Virus genome (UHGV): UHGV-0194282
Direction: 5' to 3' (one strand)
Source of the DNA: a virus
Length of the DNA: 15,247 nucleotides
The notes under the pieces are model-generated. The model ran no database searches, was not told where the DNA came from, and saw nothing but the letters and a program-made list of their open reading frames with translations. The translations under genes were made by a program, and so were the position numbers. Positions 1 to 15,247 of this stretch are shown piece by piece (position 1 is the first letter of the stretch; every line of letters begins with the position of its first letter).

Positions 1-330
1 GTTCCACTTCTGAAACTCCCCTTCCGGCGATAACCAGGTAACATTTTCCGGTAACGGACCGAGTTCAGAAATAAATAACTCGTCCCCTGACGCTACGTCA
101 TAAACCGTTTTCCCCCGATGGTCTTCAACGAGATGCCACGATGCCTCATCACTGTTGAAAACAGCCACAAAGCCAGCAGGAATATCTGGTGGTGCAATAT
201 CGGTACTGTTTGCTGGCAGACCTGTATGAGGCGGAATATATGCGTCACCTTCACCAATAAATTCATTAGTTCCGGCCAGCAGATTATAAATTTTTATGGT
301 CCGTGCTTGTTCACTCATTCTGAATGCCAT
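1..330 (-). CDS. tfa: Tail fibre assembly protein Tfa, N-terminal ~110 codons; 3' end lies beyond the window
   Basis: Minus-strand translation from the ATG at 330-328 reads [54 protein letters not shown]..., near-identical to lambda Tfa as I recall it. The start overlaps the stf stop (TAATG). Not in the ORF track because it runs off the window. Confidence 0.88.
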
Positions 331-3300
331 TATGCAAGCCTCACAATATAGTTAAATGCGATGTTTTTGACGGTGTTTTCCGCGTTACCCGCAGCGTTAA
401 CGGTGATGGTGTGTCCATGTGAACCAATCGCAACGGAGTGCGTATGCGCACCAATACCTACAGTATGTGCATGTGCGCCAGAACTTGCTGCAGTACCAGA
501 CAGCGAGTGGGTATGAGCACCTGCTGACTGTGTCTGAATACGTTGATAATACGATCTATAGGAAGAAGTCTCCGGGCTTACTTGATACTGTGAATTCTGG
601 ACATAAGTGAACCCACCGCCATCATAAAATGCTAACGCAGAACCGCCGCCTCCTGGCCAACGAATACCATTACCATGAGTATGAACACCGGCAGACCCCG
701 TAGAGCCACTCAGACTGTGCGTATGCGCCCCGGTGTTATTCGTGGATTTAGTGCCGTAATCAAACGACGATGTGGTTTTCGTCCCCAAATCCGTACTGGA
801 TGCGCTGGCGCTGTGGGTGTGCGATTTTATGCCGTCCTGTTCCTGAGACAATACGGCCCGGCCACTAGCGGGTTTGCCCTTGATTGTCCAGCCGCGCATA
901 TCTGGAATAACACCTGAAGGATAGGCAATAGCCAGTTTCGGATATGCTGCCTTATCAAACGTCTGCCCCTGCATGATCGCATAACCTGCAGGTGGTGTAT
1001 CTGATGGCCACGGCAGCGGAACACCTGGCGGAAACGCTTCAATATTTGCCGAGCCGTCAAATTTTACGCCGTTAATTGTCCTTGCAGTTTGCAATTTGGT
1101 TGCTGTGCTTGCATTACCCGATAAAGATCCAGTGATACCACCACTCGCGTTTAATTTAGTTGCAATTGTAACATTGCCAGTATGGTTACTAATTATAAAC
1201 GGCCTTAAGCTATTGTGCGTACCAAGACTGTTACCCGAATCTGTCAACATAAAATATGTGTTTGATCCATCATTTCGGATAAAGAATCCATAGTTGCCAT
1301 AGGCAATACGCAGACCATTTGCTGACCTTGAAATAACCTCACCAGCAGCAGTTAAACCACCTGAAAGAGTCCCTCCAGTTAATGCCAATGCCCCAATATT
1401 TGAAGGGGTCAATGTGATATTTGCACTACCATCAAATGACACACCGTTAATCGTTCTGGCTGCCTGAAGTTTCGTAGCGGTCGCAGCATTACCTGTAGTG
1501 TTTTGATTACCGGTAGCGTTGACTCCAGGCAAGTTGATATCTGCCGATCCATCAAATGCCACGCCCCCAATCTTACGTGCTGTCTTGATCTTGGTCGCAG
1601 TATCTGCGTTTCCGGTCAAATTACCAGTAACACTACCACCAACTTTTAGTCCATTACCGATGGACACCAACCCTGATCTTAAGTTTATAGAGAATGGTCT
1701 TAATGAACCGATGTCTCCATTTTCCCCCTCCCCTTCATTAGTCGGAATAAGATGAAGATGATCTTCGGAACGCCTAAAAATAAGGCCAAAGGCTTGGTTG
1801 AATATTCGAAGAGCATTTATCGTGCTGATTTTTAACTGCCCTCCCATTGTGTCGCCAGTTTTTTGAACTGAACTATCTTTAACAGTTTTAACTGCCTTTG
1901 GCGTTGCCGCCAGCTTTTCACTGGTGCTGTTTGTTGCACTGCTGAGCTGTACTATCCCCTTTTTCGTCGTGCTCGCATCCTCCAGCGCCACGGCGGATGC
2001 AATATCCTCTGCCCGTTTTGCTGCTGTCTCGGCGCGCGTTGCCGCGGATTCAGCAGCAACTTTGCTCTGAGATGCAGCCGTCGCACTGCCTGCCGCCTCT
2101 GATGCTTTCGCTGTTGCTGTCGTGGCACTACCTTTCGCTGCTGACGCTTGTCTGGTCGCCTCATCTTTTGAAGCAGACGCAGATGATGCCGATGACGCCG
2201 CTGAACTGGCTGACGATGCGGATGCCGCCTTAGAGGAAGCAGCATTGTCTGCTGAAGTCTTTGCATTTGTTTCAGAGGTTTTTGCTGCAGAAGCAGACCT
2301 CGCTGCTGCAGTGGCTTGCTCAGTGGCTTTGCCAGCCTTCGTTGTGGCTGTTGAAGCGGATGATGCGGCGCTTTCTGCCGATTTTCCGGCGGCGGTGGCA
2401 CTGGCTGAGGCCTGCCCGGCACTTGTTGACGCGGCACTGGCAGATAATGCAGCCGCTGTTTTTGAACCTGCCGCAGCTGAGGCGCTCTGTCCCGCTGCTG
2501 TTTCAGAAGACTTAGCGTTCGTCTCGGACGTTTTTGCCGCCTTCGCGGAATTTCCTGCCGCCGTTGCCGAGGAAGCTGCACTACTGGCACTTGATGATGC
2601 ATTCGTTTCTGAAGATTTCGCTGCCTCTTTTGAGGCCGCCGCACCCCGTGCCGAGGTGGCAGCTTCTGACGCCTTCGTGGTCGCTGTGGATGCAGAAGTG
2701 GCTGCCGATTTTTGTGATGCTGCGGCATTCGTTTCTGACGTTTTCGCGGCACTGGCGCTGGTAGCTGCCGCGCTTTTTGATGACTCTGCAGCAGCAGCAC
2801 TTTTTGCTGCTTCACGGGTCTTTGTCGATGCCGTTCCTGCGCTGGAAGACGCTGACTGAGCCGACGACGCGGCCTGTCCGGCTGACGTGCTGGCGGCACG
2901 TGCTGAGGCTGCAGCATCGGTTGCATGAGTTGCCGCCTCGCTGGCTGATGCACTGGCATCGCTGGCTGATTTTTTCGCGGCTGCCGTATTCTGTGCAACC
3001 GCGGAGGCGTTACGTGACACCTCTTCCACCATCTGCTCAAAGCGGCGCAGTGCCTCCGGTCGGACATCATCCTCCGTCATGGCACCGAGAAAATCATTCA
3101 GCGTACCTGATCTGGAACCTTCATAGACGGTAATGGTCCCGGCATGTGAAGGCGGAAAACCTTCAACCAGCAGGGTGACGCTGTACTGGCCATGCTCAAC
3201 ATCCATGCTGTAACGTCCGGCTTCATCCGGATTTTCAGAGGCCACCGTGTTCACCACCACCGTGCTGCTGGTTCGTCTGGCCTTCAGCACAATGGTGCAG

Positions 3301-3356
3301 TTCTGTACTGGTTTTCCTGTGCCATCTTTAAGCACGCCAGAAATTTTTACTGTCAT
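330..3356 (-). CDS. stf: Side tail fibre protein Stf (1008 aa)
   Basis: N-terminus [22 protein letters not shown]... and C-terminus ...[31 protein letters not shown] match lambda Stf. Ala/Ser/Thr-rich central rod, three tail-fibre repeats, His-rich C-terminal motifs. Confidence 0.93.
1040..1625 (-). repeat. Three copies of a ~27-aa phage tail-fibre repeat (GNxxTATKLQxARTINGVxFDGSANI) inside stf
   Basis: Translations of about 1040-1125, 1421-1500 and 1534-1625 give [55 protein letters not shown] and [28 protein letters not shown]. Confidence 0.7.
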
Positions 3357-3375
3357 ACTTTTCCACCAATAAAAA

Positions 3376-3403
3376 AAGCCCGCAGCAGTGACGCCACGGG
3401 CTT
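3376..3403 (-). terminator. Intrinsic terminator-like hairpin between lom and stf
   Basis: 7-bp stem aagcccg (3376-3382) / cgggctt (3397-3403) around a 14-nt loop; on the minus strand the stem is followed by a run of seven U (3371-3377 are A on +). Confidence 0.45.
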
Positions 3404-3507
3404 CAGGACAGTGTAACTTTACGTTTCCTCAAACGCAGTTCACCCCATAAGGTGGATGAACCTGCGTATCATAACAATATTTACAGAAGATAAATCGGCG
3501 TCTGTTG

Positions 3508-4107
3508 TCAGAAACGGTATCCGATACCAACAATAAATGCATCCGTTCGCCAGTCGCCACTACCGGAACCTTCATAAGCAAGGTCAATGGTTACGGATTC
3601 GGTCGGGTTAAACTGCACGCCAGCCCCCCACGCCAGAGACGTGTTGCTGTGGCGACCGTCATCACTTCCGGTCAGCACATCGTGCGTTTTCCCCTTGTTG
3701 TCAGTTACGCGGAGATAATCCCCGGAGAAAGTCGACACACGGCTGTAAGCCACACCCACCATCGCATACGCGCTGAACCATTCATTCACGCGTACAGACG
3801 GCCCCGCCATCACGCTGAACCAGCGGTTACGCACGGAATCTTCATGCCAGCGGGTATCGCTGTAGTGCGTTTTTTGCTCATCCTCAGCATTGGCATAACT
3901 GAAGGACGTAATCAGCCCCAGCGCGTCCGTAAACTCATAACGGTATTTCACGTTAATCCCGTTCAGATTATCGCTGCCGGGAGCGTTCGTACGGGCATGA
4001 AGATACCCCGCGCTCAGTGTGGACTGATGTTCAGACGCCCATGCAGGCGCACCGGATACGGACAGACAGATGGCTGCGGACAAAATGGCTGCACAAACTT
4101 TACGCAT
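3508..4107 (-). CDS. lom: Outer-membrane protein Lom (Ail/Lom family beta-barrel), 199 aa with signal peptide
   Basis: MRKVCAAILSAAICLSVSGAPAWASEHQSTLSAGYLH...IVGIGYRF matches lambda Lom almost along its full length; C-terminal aromatic residue typical of OM beta-barrels. Confidence 0.95.
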   Translation of the reverse strand: MRKVCAAILSAAICLSVSGAPAWASEHQSTLSAGYLHARTNAPGSDNLNGINVKYRYEFTDALGLITSFSYANAEDEQKTHYSDTRWHEDSVRNRWFSVMAGPSVRVNEWFSAYAMVGVAYSRVSTFSGDYLRVTDNKGKTHDVLTGSDDGRHSNTSLAWGAGVQFNPTESVTIDLAYEGSGSGDWRTDAFIVGIGYRF

Positions 4108-4131
4108 AATTACCTCTCGCTTTTCTGCAAT

Positions 4132-4155
4132 AAAAAAGGCGCCATTTCTGGCGCC
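4132..4155 (-). terminator. Intrinsic terminator between J and lom
   Basis: GGCGCC (4138-4143) / GGCGCC (4150-4155) 6-bp GC stem with a 6-nt loop; on the minus strand it is followed by U6 (A6 at 4132-4137 on +). Confidence 0.55.
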
Positions 4156-4174
4156 CGTATTGGGGTTATAAAAT

Positions 4175-7100
4175 TCAGCTAATCGTGATGCCTGCAGTGG
4201 CTTTCTTCATCACAACAACCAGCAAATCGCTGATACTTGCTGTGGGATACCAGCCATTTACCCACCATGCTGATACAGAAAACTCCAGCGTCATGTGGCC
4301 GCGACCAGCAGGCATATCAATAACACCACTGTAAATCAGCGTATTATCCAGCGCGGTACGGTTATAAATTTCAGCACCGTTTTTCCGTACTATCAGGCGG
4401 CATGACGAATAAGTATCGCTGTTCTCCCGCTCATGTCTGGCACCGCTGAAAGCCACCGCCGGAATAACAATCTGCCGGTTAAACGGCTGATCGTCATAAA
4501 CCCTGACGGTAATGGTTCCTGATGGCCAACGCTCCGGTGCACGGGAGTCACGGGGGAAAGCCTTACCCACTGTTTTAACGAGATCGCCTTCAATCTGGTT
4601 TGCAGACAGTTTCCCTCTGATGACACAGTTCTCGTTAATGGTGACATTATTGAGCGTGCCGGTATTCGCCGTGATGGCTCCACTGATATCCGCATTGCGG
4701 GCTGTCAGCCTGCCATCCGGCGTCAGGGAAAACGTAGGAGGATTGCCGGATGACGTGATGCTCACCGCAAACAGTCGCTTCAGGAACACGTCGTTCATGA
4801 ACAGCTGATTCCCCTGCGCCACAAACAGCGGCGTGGTGTTGCCGTTCTCCGGGGTAATCATCGCGATACGGTCCGCCTGCAGCAGAATACTGCTCAGCGT
4901 CTGACCATCAACATCCTCAATCCCCGCGCCAATCCCGGCCACATAGGGAATACCGTTTTTTGTTTTCTGCACCTTCAGCATATACATGGCATTCAGCTCA
5001 TTGCGCGTGTCTGACTGAACCCGCTGGATTTGCTGTATGGTCACGGCCTGGTCACCCAGCTTTTTATCCGTGGTCGAGGTAATTTCACTCCCTTTTTTAT
5101 CCACGTACTGGCGGACCTGTGCTATCTGTCGGGCGTTTTCTGACTGCCCCTGGCTGACAGTCTGTGAGATTTCACTGCTCACCCGGTCCACTTTCTGGCT
5201 CACCTGCGCGATGGCCAGTGTCTGGTCCTCATTCTTTTTCGCAACCAGCTGCGTGAGGCTGTTTTCCGCCTTCCCGATTTTCCGGGTCACTTCTGCGATA
5301 TCCGTGTCCATCCGCTGACGGATGTCTTCTTCCAGTTGCGTGACCTCCGTACGCAGCGCTGAAGCATCAATGCGCTCTTTCAGTGCCTGGCCCAGAAGCG
5401 TCTCATCTATCAGCCCCCGGAAAATTTCCAGATACCCTTCACCATCATTGCTGGGCTGCCCGCTGGCTTCCACAAAAGCAGATTTTCCCACCAGGTTGAC
5501 GCTTCGCACGTAAAACCAGAAATCCGTCCCCGGCTTAATCCGGCTCCCATGGACAGTCCACTGACTGCCGGTCCCCAGATAACGGGCAGATTTTTCCACC
5601 TGTGCTGTGTTCGTGATGCGTTTTTCTGAGAACCAGAATTCAAACTGTACCGTCGGGTCATACACCGCAAGACGCGGGACCGCCGTTATCTGAAAATACC
5701 CCGGCGTCAGCTCAATGGTGGCGGGTTTTGCAGGTGCGTTAATCCTGAACGTGGTGGTGGCCGGTTCGCCCTGCTGGCCATAACTGTTAATCGCCCTGAC
5801 CGTCAGGGTGTATTCCCCCAGTGGCAGGCCGCTGAAACGGTGCTCCGTGTCTGCGGTGCTGGCGGTGCTCACCAGACGGCTGTCTTCTCCGCTTCCGCTG
5901 GTCAGACGCAGACTGAAGCGCACACCCTTCACCACCCGCGGCGTGTCCCATTTCGCCTGTGCCAGATACTGACCGTCAGCTGCACTCACCTCCACCGTCA
6001 GGTGCTGCACTGCCGGTGGGATAACGCTGTTCAGGGTGCCTGACTGCGGCTCAAAGCGGGCCCCGTTATCCACGATGGCTTCTTTTTCAGGTACGTGCTG
6101 CACCGCCGTGATGGCAAAGGTGCCGTCCGTGTTTTCCCGGATGGAGACACAGCGGAACAGGCGACGACGCAGTGACGGCAGGGAGAGTCCCCACACACCG
6201 TATGTCTCCACACCATCCGGCAGGGTGCTGACCTGTATCCGGTCAGGCGCGGGGTGTGCGGTGATGGCCACGCTCGCCGGCTTACCGCTGCCGTTAATCA
6301 GATTAACAGTGGCCGTGCCGGTCTCCGGCAGTGTCACCTCCCGGTCCAGCGTCAGGGTACGGCTGGCGGCATCGATGGACAGGACACGTCCGCCGGTCAT
6401 GGTCCCGGCATAGTCGTTATCACAGATTTCAATGATGTCACCGGGTGTGTGACGCAGCCCCTGTGACCCGAGCGTGAAATCCACCGTCTGCGTTTCCAGC
6501 AGTTCGGTCTTTATCACCCACAGCCCGGCACGGTGGGCCTGACCGCGGCTGGTACAGCCGAACGCGTCCATCTTCAGCAGGTTGCGTCCGTAGCGCAGTA
6601 TGGCTTCCGGGTCTTCCACCAGTTCCGTGGAGGTCTGCCAGCCGTTCTGCGGGTCGGTGTAATTCACCTCCACTGCCGTGTGCCGGTCCTTCAGGGCACT
6701 GAAGCTGTAGCGGAAACCCACGCCGTTATCATCCACCACCACATCGCTGTTGGTGTACGGCCACACCACATCCGACGGACGGTCCTGAACGAACGTCAGC
6801 GTCTGGCCGTTCCATACCGGCATACAGCGCATCGCAGAGCAGAAATCACTGAGAACGTCCCACGCCTTACGCTGTTGTGCCAGGTACGCATTAAAGGTCA
6901 TCCGCGGCTCGGTCCCCCCGAAACCATCCGGGGCCGTCTGGTCGCAGTACTGCCCGATGGCATACAGCGCCCACTTGTCCACATCCGCCGCCCCCAGACG
7001 TTTTCCCATGCCGTAGCGCGGGTGAGTCAGCATGTCCCACAGACACCAGGCCGGGTTGTTGCTGTATGCCGGTTTCAGGCTGCCGTCCCAGATACCACTG

Positions 7101-7867
7101 TACGTGCGTTTTTCCGGGTCATAGTTTGACGGCACCTGGATGATGCGACCGCGGATATGGTAGTTCACCGTCATCTGCTGGCCGCCGAACTGCTCCGCAT
7201 CCACCTGCAGCCCCACAATGGCCGTGTTCGGGTAGCACTGTTTCACATCGATGATTTCGGTGTATGACGACCACAGCGTCTTATTCTGCAGCTGGTCCGT
7301 GGTGCTGTCCGCCGTCTCCCTGACCATCCGGATGTTAAAGGGCCGGGGAGGCAGATTATCCAGAATCACCGAGGCCAGGAACTGCGAGGTGGTCTTGCCG
7401 TTAATGGTGACATCCTTTTCCGTCACCCAGCGGCCATTACGCTGTAACTGAATCAGAATCCGGACAGAGGAAGGATTACGGTCGCCCTTTGACGTGGTCT
7501 GCACCAGTGACTGCACCCCGAAGGTAACCCGCAGGCGGTCAATGTTCGCGGACGTAATGGTGCGCGTCACCGGTTTTGCCTTCGTCACTTCCACGCCCAG
7601 TCCGGTTTCAGCACCGGAGGACTCAAAGCCTTCCGGTGGTGTCTGCTCCTGCTCCCCGGCGCGCCAGACCGCCGTCACACCGTGTATCACGGGATTACCG
7701 TCCGTGTCCGTCAGCGGGGTTTTGTTCACCAGGATACTCTGCAGTCCCTTCACCGGACCTTCTATCGGTCCCTCACCAATCGCATCAATCACGCTCATCA
7801 TCTGCGTGGATTTGAGATTATCCTTCGCCTCACGAGGCGTGTGTGCCTTACCGCCACCTTTTCCCAT
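4175..7867 (-). CDS. J: Tail tip / host-specificity protein J (1230 aa)
   Basis: [22 protein letters not shown]... and long colinear similarity to lambda gpJ. Shine-Dalgarno GGGGAAGG upstream of the ATG. About 100 aa longer than lambda J, with an expanded coiled-coil segment and a divergent C-terminal ~150 aa. Confidence 0.95.
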
Positions 7868-7970
7868 ACAGCCTTCCCCTGAATAAATTAACCGCCACTT
7901 GCCATTCCGTACAGAAGTCGGATATCCTTCGCCCGAAAAGCATGAAACACATTTCTGCCATGCTAAAGAG

Positions 7971-8008
7971 AAACCCCGGTATCAGCAGATACCGGGGTTT
8001 TCTTTCAT
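7971..8008. terminator. Bidirectional terminator-like hairpin in the I-J spacer
   Basis: 13-bp stem aaaccccggtatc (7971-7983) / gataccggggttt (7988-8000) with a 4-nt loop; T-rich on the + side (ttttctttc) and U-rich on the minus side. Confidence 0.45.
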
Positions 8009-8072
8009 GCCCACCGATAATCCTGTTGGTTAAAACCGGTAATGGCATAAAAATTCTGAATATCTTCACATT

Positions 8073-8100
8073 TTCACAAACTGACTGTGGCGCGTATAAT
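8073..8100 (+). promoter_or_regulatory. Sigma70-type promoter candidate: TTCACA, 16-bp spacer, TATAAT
   Basis: -35 TTCACA at 8073-8078 and a perfect -10 TATAAT at 8095-8100, pointing rightward into a terminator about 70 bp downstream. Confidence 0.45.
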
Positions 8101-8106
8101 TTCTCT

Positions 8107-8203
8107 GCGTTAATTTTTTTGTCGTGATATAAGAATAATTCCTTACACTTAATCTTCGTAACTCTCCCGCAGTTCCTGTCCGCGATCACTGCGGGATTTT
8201 TTT
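8107..8203 (+). ncRNA. Candidate prophage small RNA (~97 nt) antisense-oriented to the tail operon, in the I-J spacer
   Basis: Bounded by the promoter at 8073-8100 and the intrinsic terminator at 8165-8203. No ATG or plausible ORF inside. AU-rich body with A-R-N-like stretches (AAGAAUAAU), then terminal hairpin and U-tract. Confidence 0.4.
8165..8203 (+). terminator. Intrinsic terminator, + strand only
   Basis: 9-bp stem tcccgcagt (8165-8173) / actgcggga (8188-8196) followed by TTTTTTT (8197-8203). The reverse complement has no U-tract after the stem. Confidence 0.55.
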
Positions 8204-8210
8204 ATTCTTT

Positions 8211-8891
8211 TTACCCCTGCCGCCCGATAACCACGACCTTTCCGCCCCCGCCTTCATCACGGGTGCTGATGTCCTGGGATATACGGCGGGAGCCAACCAG
8301 CATTTCCCCGTAAGGCACCGGCATCGGGTTCCCCTGGGCAATCATGTTATCCAGTGAGGAAAAGTACGTGTTCTGTCTGCCGTTATCCGTTGCGCGGTAA
8401 TCCGGTGTTTTTGCCTTCGGGGCCAGCATCTGGGCCACACCGCCCAGAATCATGCTGGCTCCAAGTGAAAACAGCATCGTGGTGGCAGAAAAACCACCGG
8501 CTGCCAGGGCTGAACCCCATAACGCCATTGATGCCCCGGCAGTGAAGAAAGAGCCCACGATGGCTGCCGCCCCCAGCACAATCTGCAGTCCACCCTTTCC
8601 GACCCCGGCCAGTCGCGGCACAATGTGGATGACCGTTCCCTCACCCAGCTGTTCGTGAAGACGGGCGTACACCGCCTCCGGTGCCGTGTCATCACCGGCA
8701 ATACGTATCTGGTACCAGCCTTCGTTCATCTGACGGCGAAAGCCCGGCATCTGCATCGACAGGGCGCGAATGGCTTCCGCTGCCGTGTTCACATACAGGC
8801 TGAGGCGGCGGCCAAATCGTTGTAAATCCCCGTGAAGGCAGATGCGTGCCAGTGGCGGTGACGCCAGACTGAATGCGTTCGTCGTTGCCAT
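8211..8891 (-). CDS. I: Tail assembly protein I (226 aa)
   Basis: MATTNAFSLASPPLARICLHGDLQRFGRR...QNTYFSSLDNMIAQGN matches lambda gpI; overlaps the upstream K fragment as in lambda. Confidence 0.93.
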   Translation of the reverse strand: MATTNAFSLASPPLARICLHGDLQRFGRRLSLYVNTAAEAIRALSMQMPGFRRQMNEGWYQIRIAGDDTAPEAVYARLHEQLGEGTVIHIVPRLAGVGKGGLQIVLGAAAIVGSFFTAGASMALWGSALAAGGFSATTMLFSLGASMILGGVAQMLAPKAKTPDYRATDNGRQNTYFSSLDNMIAQGNPMPVPYGEMLVGSRRISQDISTRDEGGGGKVVVIGRQG

Positions 8892-9057
8892 TTTTCGGAA
8901 TACCTCTCCCGTTTACTCAGTTGTTCAGGCAGATGGTGAAGCAGCTCACCGTTGCCGCAGTAAATGGCGGCATGGTTCGGTACCGAAGCACCAAAGCAGC
9001 ACAGCAGAATATCGCCCGCCTGTGCAGAGGACAGGGGCACCCGGTAAAAGCCGGTGC
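8789..9057 (-). pseudogene. K: Tail protein K, C-terminal ~88-codon fragment (5' part deleted)
   Basis: ...TGFYRVPLSSAQAGDILLCCFGASVPNHAAIYCGNGELLHHLPEQLSKRERYSEKWQRRTHSVWRHRHWHASAFTGIYNDLAAASACM matches only the C-terminal part of lambda gpK (~246 aa); the N-terminal part with the metalloprotease motif is absent. Confidence 0.85.
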
Positions 9058-9270
9058 CTGTGCCGGTAAAAACACCTCAATATGCAGTGTGGCCCGCCAG
9101 GTATCTGCATCCAGCTCTTCACCGGTATACTCTGCATCCGTCAGATAAACCGCGATCGCAGGAAAATCCTCTTCGTCAAAAACAACGGGGCGACCATCAA
9201 ACAGCGTCGCCCCGTGTTCATGCTGCTCGAGTGCATCCAGCACTGCAGCACGGATATCAGTGTGTTTCAT
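9058..9270 (-). pseudogene. U: Tail protein U, N-terminal ~72-codon fragment fused out of frame to the K remnant
   Basis: MKHTDIRAAVLDALEQHEHGATLFDGRPVVFDEEDFPAIAVYLTDAEYTGEELDADTWRATLHIEVFLPAQ matches lambda gpU residues 1-72, then the frame runs into K sequence. ATGA overlap with the Z stop as in lambda. Confidence 0.85.
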
Positions 9271-9800
9271 CGTTTTATCGCAATCCTCAGTTGTTGTTTC
9301 AGCGCGGATGCCAGTTCTCCGGGCAGGCGTTCACGCCGGATACGGTCAACATTCTCATCAAACGCCTGTTTCAGTGGGGCCGCCATCGGGATTTTCACCA
9401 CATCAATAGGGTAACGGTTTTTCCCGGCCACACGCTGCATGACATGCCAGCGACCGTTTTTTAATCGCTGAATGAATGCCCGCTGATACCGATGCTGACC
9501 GGCTTTAAGTATGCTGTTCGGACGACGGCCCAGCATCCTGATCCCCAGCTTAATCACTGGAAGATCACCGCGGTTAACGATAATTTTTGCGTTCGGATTT
9601 CTGACCGTCGCCCGTTTCAGTCTGGACCGTTCCTTAACCAGTTTCCGGCGTACCTTTGTCTCCCGGGCAACCTGTGATGAAGACTGATTAATCGCCGTTG
9701 TGGCCACGCGGTTAATCGTCATTGCTGAAGCCGCCGGAATGGCGTTTTTACGAACCCGGCTCAGATTATCAATCGCCTGATCAAGCCCTTTTATCGCCAT
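9267..9800 (-). CDS. Z: Tail protein Z (177 aa)
   Basis: MAIKGLDQAIDNLSRVRKNAIPAASAMTINRVATTAINQSSSQVARETKVRRKLVKER...RIRRERLPGELASALKQQLRIAIKR matches lambda gpZ; Shine-Dalgarno GGGGGA upstream of the ATG. Confidence 0.9.
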   Translation of the reverse strand: MAIKGLDQAIDNLSRVRKNAIPAASAMTINRVATTAINQSSSQVARETKVRRKLVKERSRLKRATVRNPNAKIIVNRGDLPVIKLGIRMLGRRPNSILKAGQHRYQRAFIQRLKNGRWHVMQRVAGKNRYPIDVVKIPMAAPLKQAFDENVDRIRRERLPGELASALKQQLRIAIKR

Positions 9801-9815
9801 AATTTCCCCCTGCGT

Positions 9816-11411
9816 TTATCGTCGCCGGTTAACAGCGGGTGGTTGCCCACGGTTGTCCGTCCCCACTTCACACAGATAAACGCCCCGCTGATTGCGGGTT
9901 TTCGGCATGGTGATCACCGGCTTGCCATAGACAGACGCGCCTTTTACCGGCAGCACACGGAAAACACCGTGTTTTTTTGACCTCTGGTAGACGATTTCAC
10001 CATCGATCCCCCCGGTGTCCCAGCAGACACGGGAAATGGTCATTTCGGTGCCATCCGCATGGCGGTATTTTTTGTTGATCGCCGCATCCACACGTAACAG
10101 CGTCTCTTCCTCATCAGGACGCCCCATAATGATGATTTTATCCACCAGAAAAGCTTCCTCTCCCGGTGCCCATCCCCAGACATACATCTCAAAACGGTTT
10201 CGCTGCGAGTCAATGCCCGCCGTCAGATAAACCACCCGGGCAGGCACCGCCGCCGTGTAACGCACAACCTTATCCATCAGCACCTGGTGATCGAGTTTTT
10301 CGCCCACGGCCTCTTCCCAGGTCTCGCCCAGCGTGGTGTTCACAAAGGTTTTCAGGCCGTTGGGATCTTTCAGTGCATCCAGCCAGTCATAGACTATCTG
10401 TACCCAGGTGGTGAACGGACTGTACGCTGTCCAGATATGGAACGTGATGGAGCGCGGCGGCGGAATTTCATTATCCGCGGCGCTGAAAAACGTCAGACCG
10501 TCACGGGTCCACATCCCCGTGTTTTCACAGATCCACCGCCCGTTGCTCTGGTCAAGCTCAGACTGATGGATCACGCAGCCATGATGTTCACAGAGGTAGA
10601 AAACGCTTTCGGGGCTGTCCTTCTCCCATTTAAGGCCAAAAGGCGTGGATTCATCGCCAAATTTCAGATACTGCTCCTCCCCACAGTGTGGGCAGGGCAC
10701 ATAAAAACGCATGAAATGCGCCGACTCGTTGGCCGCTTTTTCGATCTGGCAGGTGCCTTTGATTTTAGGCGTCGAGCCGCGAATGGATTTGGGCCATACA
10801 GAGCCCTCAATACGTTTATCCCCAAGCAGGGTTGGCGAACCCTCTTTTTCGACATCCGGTTCGAACGAGGAAAGTTCGTCATAGCAGACCACGTCCACGG
10901 ATTTTTCACGGTAGTTTTTGGCGGCAGCGCCGCCCAGGCACCAGAAACCCACACCCGATGAAAAGCGTTTCAGCGTGAGGGTATTGTCACGATGTTTACG
11001 CCCCAGCCATGGAAAAAGGTCTTTCAGACATGGCACATCCCGAATCGTCGCCTCCACGTGAGACTTCATAAAATCTTCAGCGGCAGAATCCGTGGGCTGA
11101 AAAAGCAGACTGTTTCGGGATTTATGCTCAATAAAATACCCGACCACCCCCAGCAACATCTTTGTATAGCCAACACGGGCAGATTTAATCAGATTAACAG
11201 TCCGGATCTGATCATTCCCCATGCTGTTCATGATGGCGATCTGGAACGGCAGCGTTTTCCATTCTCCCTCACCATATGAAGATTCTTTAGGCAGATAATA
11301 ATTTTGATCAGCCCATTCAACTGGCGTCACCGGCAATGCCCTTATCAGGGGCTGTAATGCTGTTGTGACAGCACTCATCATATTATTCAGTTGTTGCTCT
11401 GATATATTCAT
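9816..11411 (-). CDS. A: Terminase large subunit gpA, C-terminally truncated (531 aa; roughly 120 C-terminal residues replaced by 12 unrelated codons)
   Basis: From the internal ATG at 11411 (MNISEQQLNN...VEWADQNYYLPKES...) colinear with lambda gpA up to ...GVYLCEVGTD, then NRGQPPAVNRRR and stop, 15 bp before Z. The ORF-track start at 11468 is an upstream extension. Overlaps the Nu1-like gene by 29 nt, as in lambda. Confidence 0.85.
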   Translation of the reverse strand: MNISEQQLNNMMSAVTTALQPLIRALPVTPVEWADQNYYLPKESSYGEGEWKTLPFQIAIMNSMGNDQIRTVNLIKSARVGYTKMLLGVVGYFIEHKSRNSLLFQPTDSAAEDFMKSHVEATIRDVPCLKDLFPWLGRKHRDNTLTLKRFSSGVGFWCLGGAAAKNYREKSVDVVCYDELSSFEPDVEKEGSPTLLGDKRIEGSVWPKSIRGSTPKIKGTCQIEKAANESAHFMRFYVPCPHCGEEQYLKFGDESTPFGLKWEKDSPESVFYLCEHHGCVIHQSELDQSNGRWICENTGMWTRDGLTFFSAADNEIPPPRSITFHIWTAYSPFTTWVQIVYDWLDALKDPNGLKTFVNTTLGETWEEAVGEKLDHQVLMDKVVRYTAAVPARVVYLTAGIDSQRNRFEMYVWGWAPGEEAFLVDKIIIMGRPDEEETLLRVDAAINKKYRHADGTEMTISRVCWDTGGIDGEIVYQRSKKHGVFRVLPVKGASVYGKPVITMPKTRNQRGVYLCEVGTDNRGQPPAVNRRR

Positions 11412-11892
11412 CGAGTAAATCCGGTAATTTATCCCCCGCCCGCGCACACTGATTTGCCCCCTTCGCAATAAGGGTTTTCAGATGGTCAAGATGGCGCGGT
11501 GTTAAATCAGGAAACTGTCGCTGCATGGATAAAGGGATGGAATCAAGCGTACTGGATAACGCCATTGCCAGCTTGCTGAGGGCAAAAATACAGAACCCGG
11601 TATCAATAAGTTTTCCTTTTGACACCTCATTTTTTAACTGCTGTGTAACAGCCTGTTCTGCTGTCAGTTCCCATCTGGCAATAAGCAATTTCTCCTCATA
11701 GTCGTCTTCGCTATCGCCATCAGGCACATCGTTTTTACTTCTTCTCAGATACGATATGTAAAAATCGCGCCAGGCATCCAGATCCAGTTGCCCTCGCTTA
11801 TTCGATATCGGGGCACCCGGCAATTTCTGCAATCTGCGAAGCTGGCGATCGGTCAGACTTAAATGCCTGGCAACTTCAGTCTGCGTAGCCAC
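11383..11892 (-). CDS. nu1: Terminase small subunit (Nu1-like; non-lambda N-terminal DNA-binding domain), GTG start
   Basis: C-terminal half (...TGFCIFALSKLAMALSSTLDSIPLSMQRQFPDLTPRHLDHLK...LLDEYI) matches lambda Nu1; the N-terminal ~60 aa differ from lambda. GTG at 11892 preceded by GAGGTGAGGA. Sits next to cos. Confidence 0.85.
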   Translation of the reverse strand: MATQTEVARHLSLTDRQLRRLQKLPGAPISNKRGQLDLDAWRDFYISYLRRSKNDVPDGDSEDDYEEKLLIARWELTAEQAVTQQLKNEVSKGKLIDTGFCIFALSKLAMALSSTLDSIPLSMQRQFPDLTPRHLDHLKTLIAKGANQCARAGDKLPDLLDEYIRATTE

Positions 11893-11939
11893 TCCTCACC
11901 TCGCAAAAACTCTCACTTCACAATCACAACAAAACCGGT

Positions 11940-12038
11940 CATGTCCGGCTTACATGTCTATTTTTTGTGCATGTCCGGTTCACAGAAGACCTCTTTTTTT
12001 ATTTTTCATATAGTTAACTTGAAGAGAAACCGGACATG
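11940..12038. repeat. cosB-like array: three copies of CATGTCCGGyTy (two direct, one inverted) around an AT-rich spacer
   Basis: catgtccgg at 11940-11948 and 11970-11978, inverted ccggacatg at 12030-12038; AT-rich 11990-12029 between the second and third copies (IHF-site-like position). The layout cosN-R3-I1-R2-R1-Nu1 mirrors lambda cosB but the repeat sequence is not lambda's. Confidence 0.6.
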
Positions 12039-12075
12039 GTTCCCGGAAAATTTTCATAAATAGCGAAAACCCGCG

Positions 12076-12087
12076 AGGTCGCCGCCC
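12076..12087 (-). other. cosN cohesive-end site (lambda-type 12-nt GGGCGGCGACCT on the minus strand)
   Basis: Window 12054-12120 is the reverse complement of the lambda cos junction as I recall it (ggaaaattttcataaatagcgaaaacccgcgaggtcgccgccccgtaac...gatcaccggaaaggacccg). Confidence 0.85.
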
Positions 12088-12310
12088 CGTAACGGTCTGG
12101 ATCACCGGAAAGGACCCGCCAACGACTTTCGCGTGCAGGCATTAAAAATTTTGCAGTTCCATGCCTAGTTGAAACCTCGATTTCTATAACATCCAATTTT
12201 GTAAATTTAGATATAGCTCAACTTTTCCCAATGTTTTCAAGTGTATAAAAACAATTGGCGTTACGCCATAACACTATACTTAGGATAAGTAAAGATTTTA
12301 AGGAGTTTTA

Positions 12311-13378
12311 ATGAGTCAACATCAATATTATCCACAGCTGAAATGGAAGCCTGCTGAATATGAATCTCTGATGCTTTTAGATCAAACTACGCTCTCTGGT
12401 TTTACTCCGATCATTACCATTCCAGACATAGACTGGGATTATGAAAACGAATGCTACAAGAAGAGTTTGAGTTCTTACTTATCTGACTTCGGTATTAACC
12501 TTGCGGCATCCTGGAAAGCCAATCGTCCTGTTTTGCTGGATGTTAAATATTTAGATAAACATGGTTCGAGCCGCCATCATCCTCTAGATATGTGTATCCA
12601 AGATGCTAGAGTAAATGGTAAGGAAATTATCCCTGTTGTTTCTCCCGCATATTCAACAAACTATATACATGCTGTTCAACGCAACTTAATCAATGGGCTC
12701 GCTATATCTATCACCCCCCAGACATGGCACCAATTCACAAGTCTGGTTAACCACTTAAATATTCATCCTAGTTTAATTGATGTAATCATTGATTTTGGAG
12801 ATATTCAAAACGCAACTGATAGTTTAAAACAACAAGCATTAAGCATGGTCAACACATTATCAGGCCAAGCTCCGTGGAGAAACTTGATTTTATCTTCAAC
12901 CGCATACCCAGCATCACAGGCAGGGATACCGCAACATCAAGTTCATCATATTCCGCGCCATGAATACGATCTTTGGATGTACGTAGTACAGAATTTTAGC
13001 AATGGAAGAACGCCAAGTTTTAGTGATTATCCCACCGCTAGCTCTACCATTACGAGCGTAGACCCACGCTTCATGTCTCAGTATGTCTCAGTGAGATATT
13101 CGAACGATACCTCATGGATCTTTGTAAAAGGTACCGCAGTTAAAGGAAATGGATGGGGCCAAACTAAAAACTTATGTACTACCCTTGTTAGTTCGCCAGA
13201 GTATCAAGTCTTTGGTTCCAAATTTAGTTGGGGGGATGATTACATTTACCAAAGATCATTAGGCGCTAACAAATCTGGCGGCTCTAAAGAATGGCGTAAA
13301 GTTGCACATACGCACCATATTACGTTAGTCGTGAGACAGCTTTATTGGTTGGCGCAGACTCAGCCTGCCAAGCCTTAA
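12311..13378 (+). CDS. Hypothetical protein, 355 aa, low-GC cargo gene; function unknown
   Basis: Long + strand ORF with a strong Shine-Dalgarno (AAGGAG, 6 nt before the ATG) and AT-rich upstream region with -10-like hexamers. GC content clearly below the flanking phage genes. No catalytic motif I can name. Confidence 0.8.
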   Translation: MSQHQYYPQLKWKPAEYESLMLLDQTTLSGFTPIITIPDIDWDYENECYKKSLSSYLSDFGINLAASWKANRPVLLDVKYLDKHGSSRHHPLDMCIQDARVNGKEIIPVVSPAYSTNYIHAVQRNLINGLAISITPQTWHQFTSLVNHLNIHPSLIDVIIDFGDIQNATDSLKQQALSMVNTLSGQAPWRNLILSSTAYPASQAGIPQHQVHHIPRHEYDLWMYVVQNFSNGRTPSFSDYPTASSTITSVDPRFMSQYVSVRYSNDTSWIFVKGTAVKGNGWGQTKNLCTTLVSSPEYQVFGSKFSWGDDYIYQRSLGANKSGGSKEWRKVAHTHHITLVVRQLYWLAQTQPAKP

Positions 13379-13940
13379 CTTTCCAGCCTACGCGTTTCTT
13401 TAAGGCTGTTCTGACTTCAAGCCTGAGATTCGCTATTGGAATATTTTCCGCAATAATATTCCATAACTCAAATCGGGGCTTGCTTTTGATTCCTTTGGAA
13501 TAGCCCCATCGTTCAAGTACGTCGATACATTCATCTTTCCAAAGCAATTGAGCGAGCATCAATGTGTCATGGTTTCGATTAAGCTTTTCTCCACGCATGT
13601 GCTTTATAAGAATGGCGCCTTTTGGCCCAACAGAAACCGTTTTAACGCCCCACCAACCTGGGATTAACTTTAATGCTCCCTCAAGATGTTTCTCAGCTAC
13701 GACAAGAGTAACCTTGTCCATTACAGAAGAATAATGCTTGATTTGAAGAGGCAAACGCTCCAAAGAGTCATATTCACTTTTGAGCTCGTACCCGTGTATA
13801 ACACCATTTATTACAGCAATGTCTGCTCTACTGGCGCCAAGGGATATGGAAAATTCATCGACCACAAGGCAGTCTGGATCTAAATGCGATTCTTTCAAAA
13901 GCTTATGATGCACCGCGAACCTAACATCTTGATCTTTCAT
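13320..13940 (-). CDS. Hypothetical protein, 206 aa, with a PD-(D/E)xK nuclease-like motif
   Basis: Minus-strand ORF with AAGGAG 5 nt before the ATG. The N-terminal region has acidic residue E29 (VVDEF), D40 (RADIAV) and E52-x-K54 (GYELK), the spacing typical of PD-(D/E)xK nucleases. Convergent with the 355-aa gene; 3' ends overlap by 59 bp. Low GC. Confidence 0.8.
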   Translation of the reverse strand: MKDQDVRFAVHHKLLKESHLDPDCLVVDEFSISLGASRADIAVINGVIHGYELKSEYDSLERLPLQIKHYSSVMDKVTLVVAEKHLEGALKLIPGWWGVKTVSVGPKGAILIKHMRGEKLNRNHDTLMLAQLLWKDECIDVLERWGYSKGIKSKPRFELWNIIAENIPIANLRLEVRTALKKRVGWKVKAWQAESAPTNKAVSRLT

Positions 13941-14290
13941 GACTTCTCCTTACTCCCTCCGTTATTGAATTATAGCGCACTGCATTTTACTGCATTTGAG
14001 AGATTTGACCACTTCAATCACAAAATGCTTATCTGCAGCAACAAGATTCATAGCCATACGACTATGGTGATTACCTTTTGTCTGGAAAACTGACCATTCC
14101 ACGAAGATCAGATAGGTCTATAGAATCTTGGTTTGTCATAGCGTTCGCCTTACTTTGAGATGAACCTTTGCTGCATAGGAGATCAGCCCGTCAAGGCTCA
14201 CCAGCACTAACTGACTACTCAAAGGCTCATTCCAAAGGGTTTGGTTCGACGTGGTTGAGTGCACTGCGGTGCGCGGTGAAATACCTGTAC

Positions 14291-14317
14291 AAAAATGCCC
14301 CGCATCTGCGAGGCATT
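14291..14317 (-). terminator. Intrinsic terminator ~40 bp downstream of Rz/Rz1
   Basis: Stem aatgcc (14294-14299) / ggcatt (14312-14317) with a further internal cgca/tgcg pairing; on the minus strand it is followed by U5 (A5 at 14291-14295 on +). Confidence 0.55.
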
Positions 14318-14356
14318 TTCCTGAAAGTCACGTATTAAATTTCAGTGAAATTAAAA

Positions 14357-14794
14357 TTATTTTAAGCACTGCGTCCTGATGTACTCCTGCAGGTAGTTGA
14401 CCTGCGCGGTTATCTTGTCGATTCCACTTCGGAGACGGTAATAATTGAGTTCAGCATCTGCTGTAAGTCTTGGGCTTTCTCCATTGCCCATGCCGCTGGC
14501 TCCGGTCGTTGACTTTGCACAGGTAGCGGCGACTTGCAGGCGCTTACGCCCAGCAGAAACATCAGCACGGAGGCTTTCGATAGTCGCGTTAGCATCAGCA
14601 AGCTCCTTTGTATATCTGGCATCGAGTTCTGCTACGTCACGTTGACGCTTCTGCATATCAGCGATTGTGGATGTGGCTTTATCGCGCTGCTCTTTGTAGG
14701 TTATGGCGTTATCACGGTAATGATTCAGCCCCAGACTAAGCGCACCACAGGCCACCAGCAGGGCAATGATGACCACGCACAGTACGCGGTTCAT
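14357..14794 (-). CDS. Rz: Spanin inner-membrane subunit Rz (145 aa)
   Basis: MNRVLCVVIIALLVACGALSLGLNHYRDNAITYKEQRDK...DVAELDARYTKELADA...GRKRL matches lambda Rz; N-terminal transmembrane segment then coiled coil. Confidence 0.93.
   Translation of the reverse strand: MNRVLCVVIIALLVACGALSLGLNHYRDNAITYKEQRDKATSTIADMQKRQRDVAELDARYTKELADANATIESLRADVSAGRKRLQVAATCAKSTTGASGMGNGESPRLTADAELNYYRLRSGIDKITAQVNYLQEYIRTQCLK
14410..14595 (-). CDS. Rz1: Spanin outer-membrane lipoprotein Rz1 (~61 aa), embedded in the +1 frame of Rz
   Basis: From the internal ATG at 14595 (AAGGAG 8 nt upstream): MLTRLSKASVLMFLLGVSAC, a signal peptide with a lipobox, then a proline-rich mature region KSPLPVQSQRPEPAAW. The ORF track shows the longer 14410-14622 frame. 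Confidence 0.8.
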   Translation of the reverse strand: MLTRLSKASVLMFLLGVSACKSPLPVQSQRPEPAAWAMEKAQDLQQMLNSIITVSEVESTR

Positions 14795-14795
14795 T

Positions 14796-14894
14796 TCACC
14801 ACCAGCGTATCTGACCGATGAAATAACCGGAGGCCATAATCACAAACACCAGCCAGATAAGAATGAACTTCCAGGTGGATAATTTTTCAGCCAT
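14796..14894 (-). CDS. Possible small membrane protein (32 aa) translationally coupled to Rz
   Basis: ATG at 14894 preceded by GGGAGA about 8 nt upstream; product MAEKLSTWKFILIWLVFVIMASGYFIGQIRWW has one hydrophobic helix; its TGA stop lies 1 nt before the Rz ATG. The upstream part of the 89-aa track ORF spans a terminator hairpin and is not credited. Confidence 0.3.
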   Translation of the reverse strand: MAEKLSTWKFILIWLVFVIMASGYFIGQIRWW

Positions 14895-14969
14895 CACTCG
14901 AATCTCCCGAATCAGTTTGCTAAAATCAAACACACTTTCTCCTTTGACTTTTCCGGAGTCAGGAAACAC

Positions 14970-15003
14970 AAAACCCCGCTTGCAGCCAACAAACGGGGTT
15001 TTT
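14970..15003. terminator. Bidirectional terminator-like hairpin between the endolysin gene and the small ORF/Rz
   Basis: aaaaccccg (14970-14978) / cggggtttt (14994-15002) with a partly paired loop; T-tracts on both flanks. Confidence 0.4.
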
Positions 15004-15092
15004 ACTTTTATTCTCTTAGTTTTTGTCAGTTCGCAGGATTTCGTGTTATCCGTCCGTGTGAGCAAACCGCATTTTTCAGCAAAATATTCTGC

Positions 15093-15247
15093 TTATCTGT
15101 CAATTCCCCAGCACGCCAGCGCACTCTCCTGGTCGCGACGGGATACCTGACCGTAACAGTTGTTTGAGCGAATACGGCAGTCTCTGCCACCGTCCTTAAT
15201 CCACCAGCGAATCGCCTCACACGCTCCCCTGCGATCACCTGCATTAA
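15093..15247 (-). CDS. R: Endolysin (phage lysozyme R), C-terminal 50 codons; 5' part lies beyond the window
   Basis: Minus-strand frame reads ...NAGDRRGACEAIRWWIKDGGRDCRIRSNNCYGQVSRRDQESALACWGIDR then stop at 15093-15095, matching the C-terminus of lambdoid-prophage lysozymes as I recall them. Not in the ORF track because it is window-truncated and out of frame with the listed 72-aa ORF. Confidence 0.85.
   Translation of the reverse strand, partial: NAGDRRGACEAIRWWIKDGGRDCRIRSNNCYGQVSRRDQESALACWGIDR

Follow-up and report, generated by a model that had tools for sequence, protein, structure and literature searches.

A U/K deletion junction in a decaying lambda-like prophage of Escherichia coli, with illegitimate recombination at short imperfect homology as its probable origin

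In phage lambda the tail genes follow the order Z-U-V-G-T-H-M-L-K-I-J, and the same order and gene families are found in the intact relatives of the element described here. In the window, by which is meant the whole 15,247-nt stretch of virus genome UHGV-0194282 that was analysed, U instead stops short after codon 71, K begins only at codon 160, and all that lies between them in lambda is absent. The question raised by this locus is how the 5′ part of U (9270-9057 on the minus strand) came to abut the 3′ part of K (9056-8789), out of frame with it. The join is very probably the scar of a single deletion of 5,878 bp within one lambda-like prophage adjoining potB, produced by illegitimate recombination at short imperfect homology. 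The features on which this reading depends are as follows.

9267-9800, minus strand: intact Z-like minor tail gene, 177 aa (Pfam Minor_tail_Z, full profile, E 8e-58)
9057-9270, minus strand: 5′ remnant of U (tail terminator), codons 1-71 and the first base of codon 72
9056-9057, no strand: U/K deletion junction, placed by three-way alignment (window, U parent, K parent) and BLAST block ends
8917-9270, minus strand: chimeric 117-codon open reading frame, 71 aa of U followed by 46 aa of out-of-frame K
8789-9056, minus strand: 3′ remnant of K (tail-tip assembly), 1 nt, then codons 160-247 of 247 and the stop
8211-8792, minus strand: intact I-like tail assembly gene, 193 aa (Pfam Lambda_tail_I)

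On the U side, the minus-strand ATG at 9270 opens a frame, MKHTD...HIEVFLPAQ, that encodes MKHTDIRAAVLDALEQHEHGATLFDGRPVVFDEEDFPAIAVYLTDAEYTGEELDADTWRATLHIEVFLPAQ and then continues through unrelated residues to a stop at 8917. The U piece matches Pfam Phage_tail_U (PF06141) over profile positions 1-74 of 130 (E 5e-31) and is 81% identical to lambda gpU over residues 1-73. The preliminary description had claimed a match to gpU over 72 residues of this frame; the match stands, while the U-derived part shortens to 71 codons and one nucleotide. Residues 72-73 (AP) are specified by GCA, a hybrid codon, and by CCG from K, the latter restoring the proline of U by chance. Whereas an intact relative spans positions 1-130 of the roughly 130-aa domain, the U piece covers little more than half of it, and it is a gene remnant rather than a member of the gpU family. 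The family match of the chimeric frame as a whole is limited to residues 1-73, residues 72-117 being out-of-frame K sequence; PADLOC returned no match for it, no sign of function was found, and it should not be mistaken for a new protein. Directly upstream lies the Z-like gene, which PGAP names ‘phage tail protein’ (WP_000974996.1). The Z-U stretch at 9048-9855 is 99.5-99.75% identical to the intact prophages of strains 582 and WP5-S18-ESBL-09, and the part from 9057 to 9800 occurs at 100% identity in many other genomes.

On the K side, the K frame reads TGFYRVPLSSAQAGD..., that is TGFYRVPLSSAQAGDILLCCFG...AAASACM*, to its end at 8789. Pfam NlpC/P60 is matched in its C-terminal part (profile positions 46-105 of 105), and the frame is 83% identical to residues 112-197 of lambda gpK, which bears out the earlier claim that some 88 C-terminal codons of gpK follow the U sequence in another frame: there are 88 codons, and they end at 8789. 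The intact K of this lineage is annotated with 247 aa, as against 199 aa for lambda K, and carries in the relatives a Prok-JAB domain at 3-105 and an NLPC_P60 domain at 111-224 (Pfam). Starting at residue 160, the remnant contains no JAB/MPN domain and lacks the first 45 positions of the NlpC/P60 profile. The cysteine of the TDCYTLF motif, probably the catalytic residue of the NlpC/P60 domain, is residue 121 of intact K and lies inside the deleted part. The U and K remnants stand in different frames, and therefore no U-K fusion protein would be expected, nor any K fragment with a function.

The stop codon of K is overlapped by the I-like gene (PGAP WP_001090032.1), the identical protein of which is found in intact relatives. 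The gap between I and J (7868-8210) measures 343 nt compared with 61 nt in lambda and is conserved in the intact relatives; a minus-strand open reading frame of 113 codons in this gap, at 7848-8189, has no Pfam or NCBIfam match. J in the window encodes 1,230 aa. A scan of the whole window against Rfam gave nothing at gathering score, a scan for sigma-70-like promoters between 8500 and 10000 gave none, and terminator-like candidates were found at the level of shuffled sequence, with none near the junction.

At 100% identity the window matches E. coli AST46 (NZ_AP043639.1, 1201249-1216495, reverse strand), where the annotation and Pfam matches of the late genes reveal a lambdoid gene order within a bacterial chromosome: a Q-like antiterminator, lysis genes, nu1, A′, Z, U′, ′K, I, J, lom, tail fibre and tfa, with the element adjoining potB. 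Three tRNA genes (Ile, Arg, Arg) and hokD, dicB, ydfB and ydfC belong to the element outside the window. An intact version is found in strain 582 (NZ_CP120568.1), in whose prophage the end genes seen beside potB in AST46, for a methyltransferase and tail fibre assembly, recur together with a complete late operon in lambda order, consisting of nu1, A, W, B, C, D, E, FI, FII, Z, U, V, G, T, H, M, L, K, I, J, lom, tail fibre and tfa. In WP5-S18-ESBL-09, where V-G-T-H-M-L is also intact between U and K, the tail cluster is closer still. Against the strain 582 locus, the window falls into three collinear blocks.

Window 1-9056: collinear with strain 582 locus 1001-10051
Window 9048-9855: collinear with strain 582 locus 15921-16728
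Window 9850-15247: collinear with strain 582 locus 22573-27969

The first of these, on the J side, is 98.5% identical to strain 582, and the others 99.5-99.8%. The preliminary description had proposed an alignment to intact prophages, and it is this comparison that yields the breakpoint at 9057/9056 and the loss: relative to strain 582, 5,878 bp are absent at the U/K join and, by alignment, no bases are inserted. What was lost comprises U codons 72-131, V, G, T, H, M, L and K codons 1-159 of 247. V is the tail tube, G and T are chaperones and H is the tape measure. The view that the tail tube, tape-measure and tail-tip assembly genes are missing between U and K is accordingly borne out, since intact relatives carry V-G-T-H-M-L at this place.

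The junction was resolved by aligning the window with U and K parent sequences taken from loci L003 (strain 582) and L004, the parental sequence being represented by close relatives at 98.5-100% identity. With the join marked by a slash, the U parent reads ...GTGTTTTTACCGGCACAGG/TACCGGATTCAGAG..., the K parent ...AATATGGCGGT/CACCGGCTTTTACCGGGTGCCC..., and the window ...GTGTTTTTACCGGCACAGG/CACCGGCTTTTACCGGGTGCCC..., which is U to the left of the join and K to the right. The final U-derived base is 9057 (G) and the initial K-derived base is 9056 (C). Every base at the junction is attributable to U or K, with no filler DNA. A position of about 9055-9060, in the string gcacaggc, had been proposed before; the string was right (gcacagg/c), and the three-way alignment narrows the position to exactly 9057/9056.

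A 9-bp direct repeat lies close to the join, in the two copies that the preliminary description had placed on the minus strand at 9041-9049 and 9063-9071.

9063-9071, minus strand: direct repeat TTTTACCGG, copy 1, native to U (codons V-F-L-P)
9041-9049, minus strand: direct repeat TTTTACCGG, copy 2, native to K (codons G-F-Y-R)

U and K each contributed one copy of their own, with the crossover falling between the two, in agreement with the earlier judgement that the repeat is not sufficient to explain the deletion. At the crossover itself, 9057/9056, no base is exactly shared by both parents and retained in one copy, as microhomology would require, although ACCGG is common to them from one base inside the join and GGT from just before it. 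Taken together these form an imperfect patch, GGT-ACCGG in U and GGTCACCGG in K, in which 8 of 9 positions match with a 1-nt gap. An ancestral U reading CAGGCACCGG, which would supply an exact microhomology of 6 bp, was considered and rejected: a 96-nt synthetic query carrying the T-to-C change had a best full-length match of 95/96, and no perfect full-length match, among about 1,590 genomes with this type of U. As C was found at the junction base in none of the U alleles of these genomes, the junction C comes from K.

Whether such a patch could arise by chance placement was assessed against 20,000 simulated random deletions of the intact prophage, a test that was chosen after seeing the data. 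Exact microhomology was lacking in 55% of the simulated deletions, so that its absence alone is uninformative. The configuration ‘one mismatch then 5 or more matches’ appeared at 0.15% of simulated junctions (post hoc), and a direct repeat of 9 bp or longer within the retained 30-bp flanks at 0.36%. On this post hoc test, the breakpoints lie in local similarity beyond what chance placement would give, and the join combines non-random placement with the lack of filler that is looked for in a microhomology-mediated deletion; use of the label ‘microhomology-mediated’ depends on the imperfect patch and on a significance test made post hoc.

We propose that the U and K ends would have been joined by illegitimate, RecA-independent recombination, guided by the short imperfect homology (U ...CAGG-T-ACCGG..., K ...CGGT-C-ACCGG...) rather than by the nearby 9-bp repeat. 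Two routes could lead to the observed CAGG/CACCGG. In one, a slipped or annealed intermediate would form over ACCGG and the adjacent T/C mismatch would be fixed as the K base, for example if a nascent strand ending in ...CCGGTG re-paired on the U template with a terminal G:T mismatch. In the other, resected ends would be brought together by end-joining. On sequence alone, the candidate pathways would include replication slippage, topoisomerase-mediated joining and the joining of ends that follows a double-strand break. For slippage of the simple kind, a distance of 5.9 kb would be long. In E. coli, illegitimate recombination has a likeness to microhomology-mediated end joining (PMC11372144), and the U/K join is like the short-homology events of the lambda Spi- assay and like alternative end-joining in having neither long homology nor an insert, and in the position of its breakpoints within a patch of short similarity (PMC11372144). 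It differs from microhomology recombination in that no exact base is shared at the join, the 5 nt of identity starting one base in.

Could the K breakpoint itself have been predisposed to break? A variant of this mechanism holds that the quasi-palindrome CACCGGCTTTTACCGGGTG stalls replication or is cleaved, seeding deletions at a hot spot. In its favour, a fourth genome, that of E. coli SJ7 (NZ_CP044315.1, locus ~7030-7036, corresponding to window ~9038), covers the junction query by way of a different, independent deletion, in which V (the tail tube gene) is fused to K; in K it ends 18 bp downstream of the U/K deletion, and the two K-side ends bracket CACCGGCTTTTACCGGGTG. However, the predicted hairpin is weak (-5.3 and -7.0 kcal/mol; z -0.6 and -1.1 against shuffled sequence), and DNA folding at the K breakpoint on either strand of both parents was likewise weak and no different from shuffles (z -0.6 to -1.4). 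Moreover, there are two events only, and the SJ7 assembly is full of frameshift errors that leave its junction uncertain. We regard the variant as unlikely. The broader proposal, that the lambdoid K site is a recurrent structural hot spot for loss of the tail module with I-J-lom-tail fibre kept, is distinctly unlikely too; if it held, E. coli prophages would recurrently shed their tail module at this site. Weaker still than the hot-spot reading, which itself falls within a small joint probability, is the idea that the 71-aa U fragment might be expressed and might poison tail completion of superinfecting lambdoid phages.

A deletion within one prophage has also to be set against a join between two lambdoid prophages, or the import of the join from another defective prophage. 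E. coli genomes hold several similar prophages and exchange between prophages is documented (PMC2669165), and the J-side block is, as noted, more diverged from strain 582 than the others. Yet both sides of the join are collinear with, and 99.75-99.9% identical to, the single prophage of WP5-S18-ESBL-09, the prophage-end genes match strain 582, and no chromosomal rearrangement is visible around the prophage. With both sides so close to one intact element, a two-prophage origin is unnecessary, and we consider it very improbable.

Recombination between the two TTTTACCGG copies would, for its part, make use of a repeat that is real and whose flanking position, by the simulated 0.36%, is unlikely by chance, but such an event would leave one copy, whereas both remain with 13 nt of unique U/K sequence between them and the crossover is 6 nt away from each, downstream of the one in U and upstream of the one in K; we attach almost no probability to it, and the three-way alignment rules out the deletion as repeat-mediated. 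Deletion mediated by an insertion sequence was rejected as well, the junction being purely U and K sequence with no IS end or target-site duplication; the nearest annotated IS is more than 11 kb from the U/K junction.

The U/K join was found in 3 of 5,426 complete E. coli genomes, those of AST46, TOE17 and DLI.5a. TOE17 differs from the window at about 2 positions and DLI.5a has the same junction. One carrier is from a human in Japan, one from human faeces in Myanmar and one from marine sediment in Hong Kong, and they represent three independent assemblies; in pairwise comparison there are 1-3 substitutions per aligned block, and never more than 4 in a pair, across 17-25 kb. Because the carriers are near-identical, with 2 SNPs in 21-25 kb, and two additional deletions are private to DLI.5a, the U/K deletion predates their split; the comparison with sister strains, proposed in the preliminary description as a means of dating it, thus gives an event common to the three carriers and older than their divergence. 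On this evidence the join is inherited from their recent common ancestor. The deletion, its exact endpoints, its gene content, its effects on reading frame and its descent in three strains can all be read directly from these alignments.

The same three genomes bear on the suspicion that the tail genes are really present and were collapsed out of the assembly. Several similar lambdoid prophages per E. coli genome (the junction query matched a median of 3 places) can confuse assemblers, and a single window would not by itself be sufficient against such an artefact. However, an identical junction in three complete assemblies that differ in country and type of sample, together with breakpoints that share only 5-9 bp of sequence, far too short for a collapse, and sides that are both collinear with one intact prophage, make this explanation scarcely credible and uphold the earlier description of the join as a true deletion.

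No supporting point was found for a natural arrangement, that is, a phage lineage in which short U-like and short K-like genes are adjacent by design, a reading to which next to no likelihood is given: none of the 238 matching phage records covers at least 80% of the junction query, the three carriers alone have the join among the 5,426 genomes, the domains are truncated (U profile 1-74 of 130, NlpC/P60 46-105 of 105) and the pieces out of frame, and near-identical intact genes are found in related prophages, including that of strain 582. The outcome is in favour of the preliminary description, which had named an intact phage with such an adjacency as counter-evidence. The exact 38-nt junction string likewise had no match in GTDB species-representative genomes or JGI metagenome contigs.

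The single intra-prophage deletion that we favour is not an isolated event in this element. A second deletion lies just upstream of Z, and it truncates the gene for the large subunit of terminase.

9853-9856, no strand: second deletion junction, 5,849 bp missing, with a 2-bp ‘CA’ microhomology
9855-11411, minus strand: truncated terminase large subunit gene, 519 of 642 codons (Pfam; PGAP pseudogene, ‘missing C-terminus’)

This deletion removes W, B, C/Nu3, D, E, FI and most of FII (portal, protease/scaffold, decoration, capsid) and fuses codon 519 of 642 of the terminase large subunit to the 3′ end of FII. The truncated terminase retains a complete GpA_ATPase domain and positions 3-212 of the 294 in the GpA_nuclease profile. 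The near-equal sizes of the two deletions, 5,849 and 5,878 bp, are probably coincidence. Measured against strain 582, two deletions have left essential genes missing or broken, and the genes that remain intact are Z, I, J, lom, tail fibre, tfa, an Rz-type lysis gene and a Beta-protein/sce7726 pair. Since U and K are both broken, the prophage would be unable to build tails, and since the second deletion has removed head genes, it would be unable to build heads; from the loss of V, H and the portal and capsid genes, no particle production by the element is to be expected. By its gene content the element appears to be a decaying, defective lambda-like prophage. Insertion sequences have also entered it. 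IS421 and ISKpn26 features are found in AST46 at 36538-38936 and 43531-45065 (locus coordinates, outside the window), IS421 splitting the prophage DNA methyltransferase gene and, in the early region, the ISKpn26 transposase gene adjoining a DUF977 gene that is truncated.

The decay can be followed further in sister strains, which carry other, independent deletions in the same prophage. DLI.5a has lost 1,004 bp within J at a 7-bp ATTCCCC microhomology (AST46 locus ~21815-22811; window ~4815-5811) and 2,133 bp that extend from the SASA esterase gene into Rz (AST46 locus ~31617-33745; window ~14617 onward), with loss of the holin, YdfR and lysozyme genes and a [T/C]ATC junction that repeats the mismatch-then-match pattern of the U/K join. 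Neither deletion is present in AST46 or TOE17, which shows that decay is continuing. Strain B-JRPT-4119 (NZ_CP106756.1, locus ~16984-18570) has the same end genes and an intact tail cluster, together with a truncated lysis gene and a different head deletion in which the portal gene is fused to FII, and represents an independent decay path in another lineage. The short-homology junctions of the U/K, CA, ATTCCCC and [T/C]ATC deletions are a signature of RecA-independent illegitimate recombination, and the sister deletions resemble known short-homology recombination in their 2-7 bp of microhomology.

Deletions, frameshifts and IS insertions are common in the lambdoid prophages of E. coli (PMC2669165), and the element described here resembles the Sp-series defective prophages of Sakai O157 and Rac, Qin, DLP12 and e14 of K-12 in losing morphogenetic genes through deletions and IS (PMC2669165) while keeping lysis, tail-tip and fibre genes, lom and accessory cargo. 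The dicB, ydfB, ydfC and hokD genes of Qin/Rac-type early regions are likewise present in the AST46 element. It differs from the Sakai and K-12 prophages in being another element at another site, adjoining potB, and in the recency of its decay, as intact copies at 98.5-99.9% identity exist in other strains and the deletion is confined to three near-identical ones. The U/K scar is ordinary prophage decay. In all three carriers PGAP already records a ‘gpU phage tail terminator protein, incomplete, missing C-terminus’ and an ‘NlpC/P60 family protein, incomplete, missing N-terminus’, so that both fragments are flagged as partial pseudogenes in public annotation and the scar is not new in kind. The correct annotation is two pseudogene fragments in a defective prophage, with little importance beyond this. 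What the locus does offer is a base-resolved view of stepwise decay, in which near-identical strains have one prophage intact, with a single deletion or with several, and this series may be of modest use for the study of deletion junctions in natural E. coli populations. The join can also be used as a lineage marker for the AST46/TOE17/DLI.5a clade.

One further observation concerns the DNA between Rz and nu1, where a convergent, overlapping gene pair (12311-13378 on the plus strand and 13320-13940 on the minus strand) is also present in intact relatives. One gene of the pair encodes a Beta_protein (PF14350, E 8e-56) with PADLOC matches to PD-Lambda-2_C and ‘beta’, and the other a sce7726-family protein with the PADLOC match ‘cll’. 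The pair looks like accessory prophage cargo, possibly with a role in anti-phage defence.
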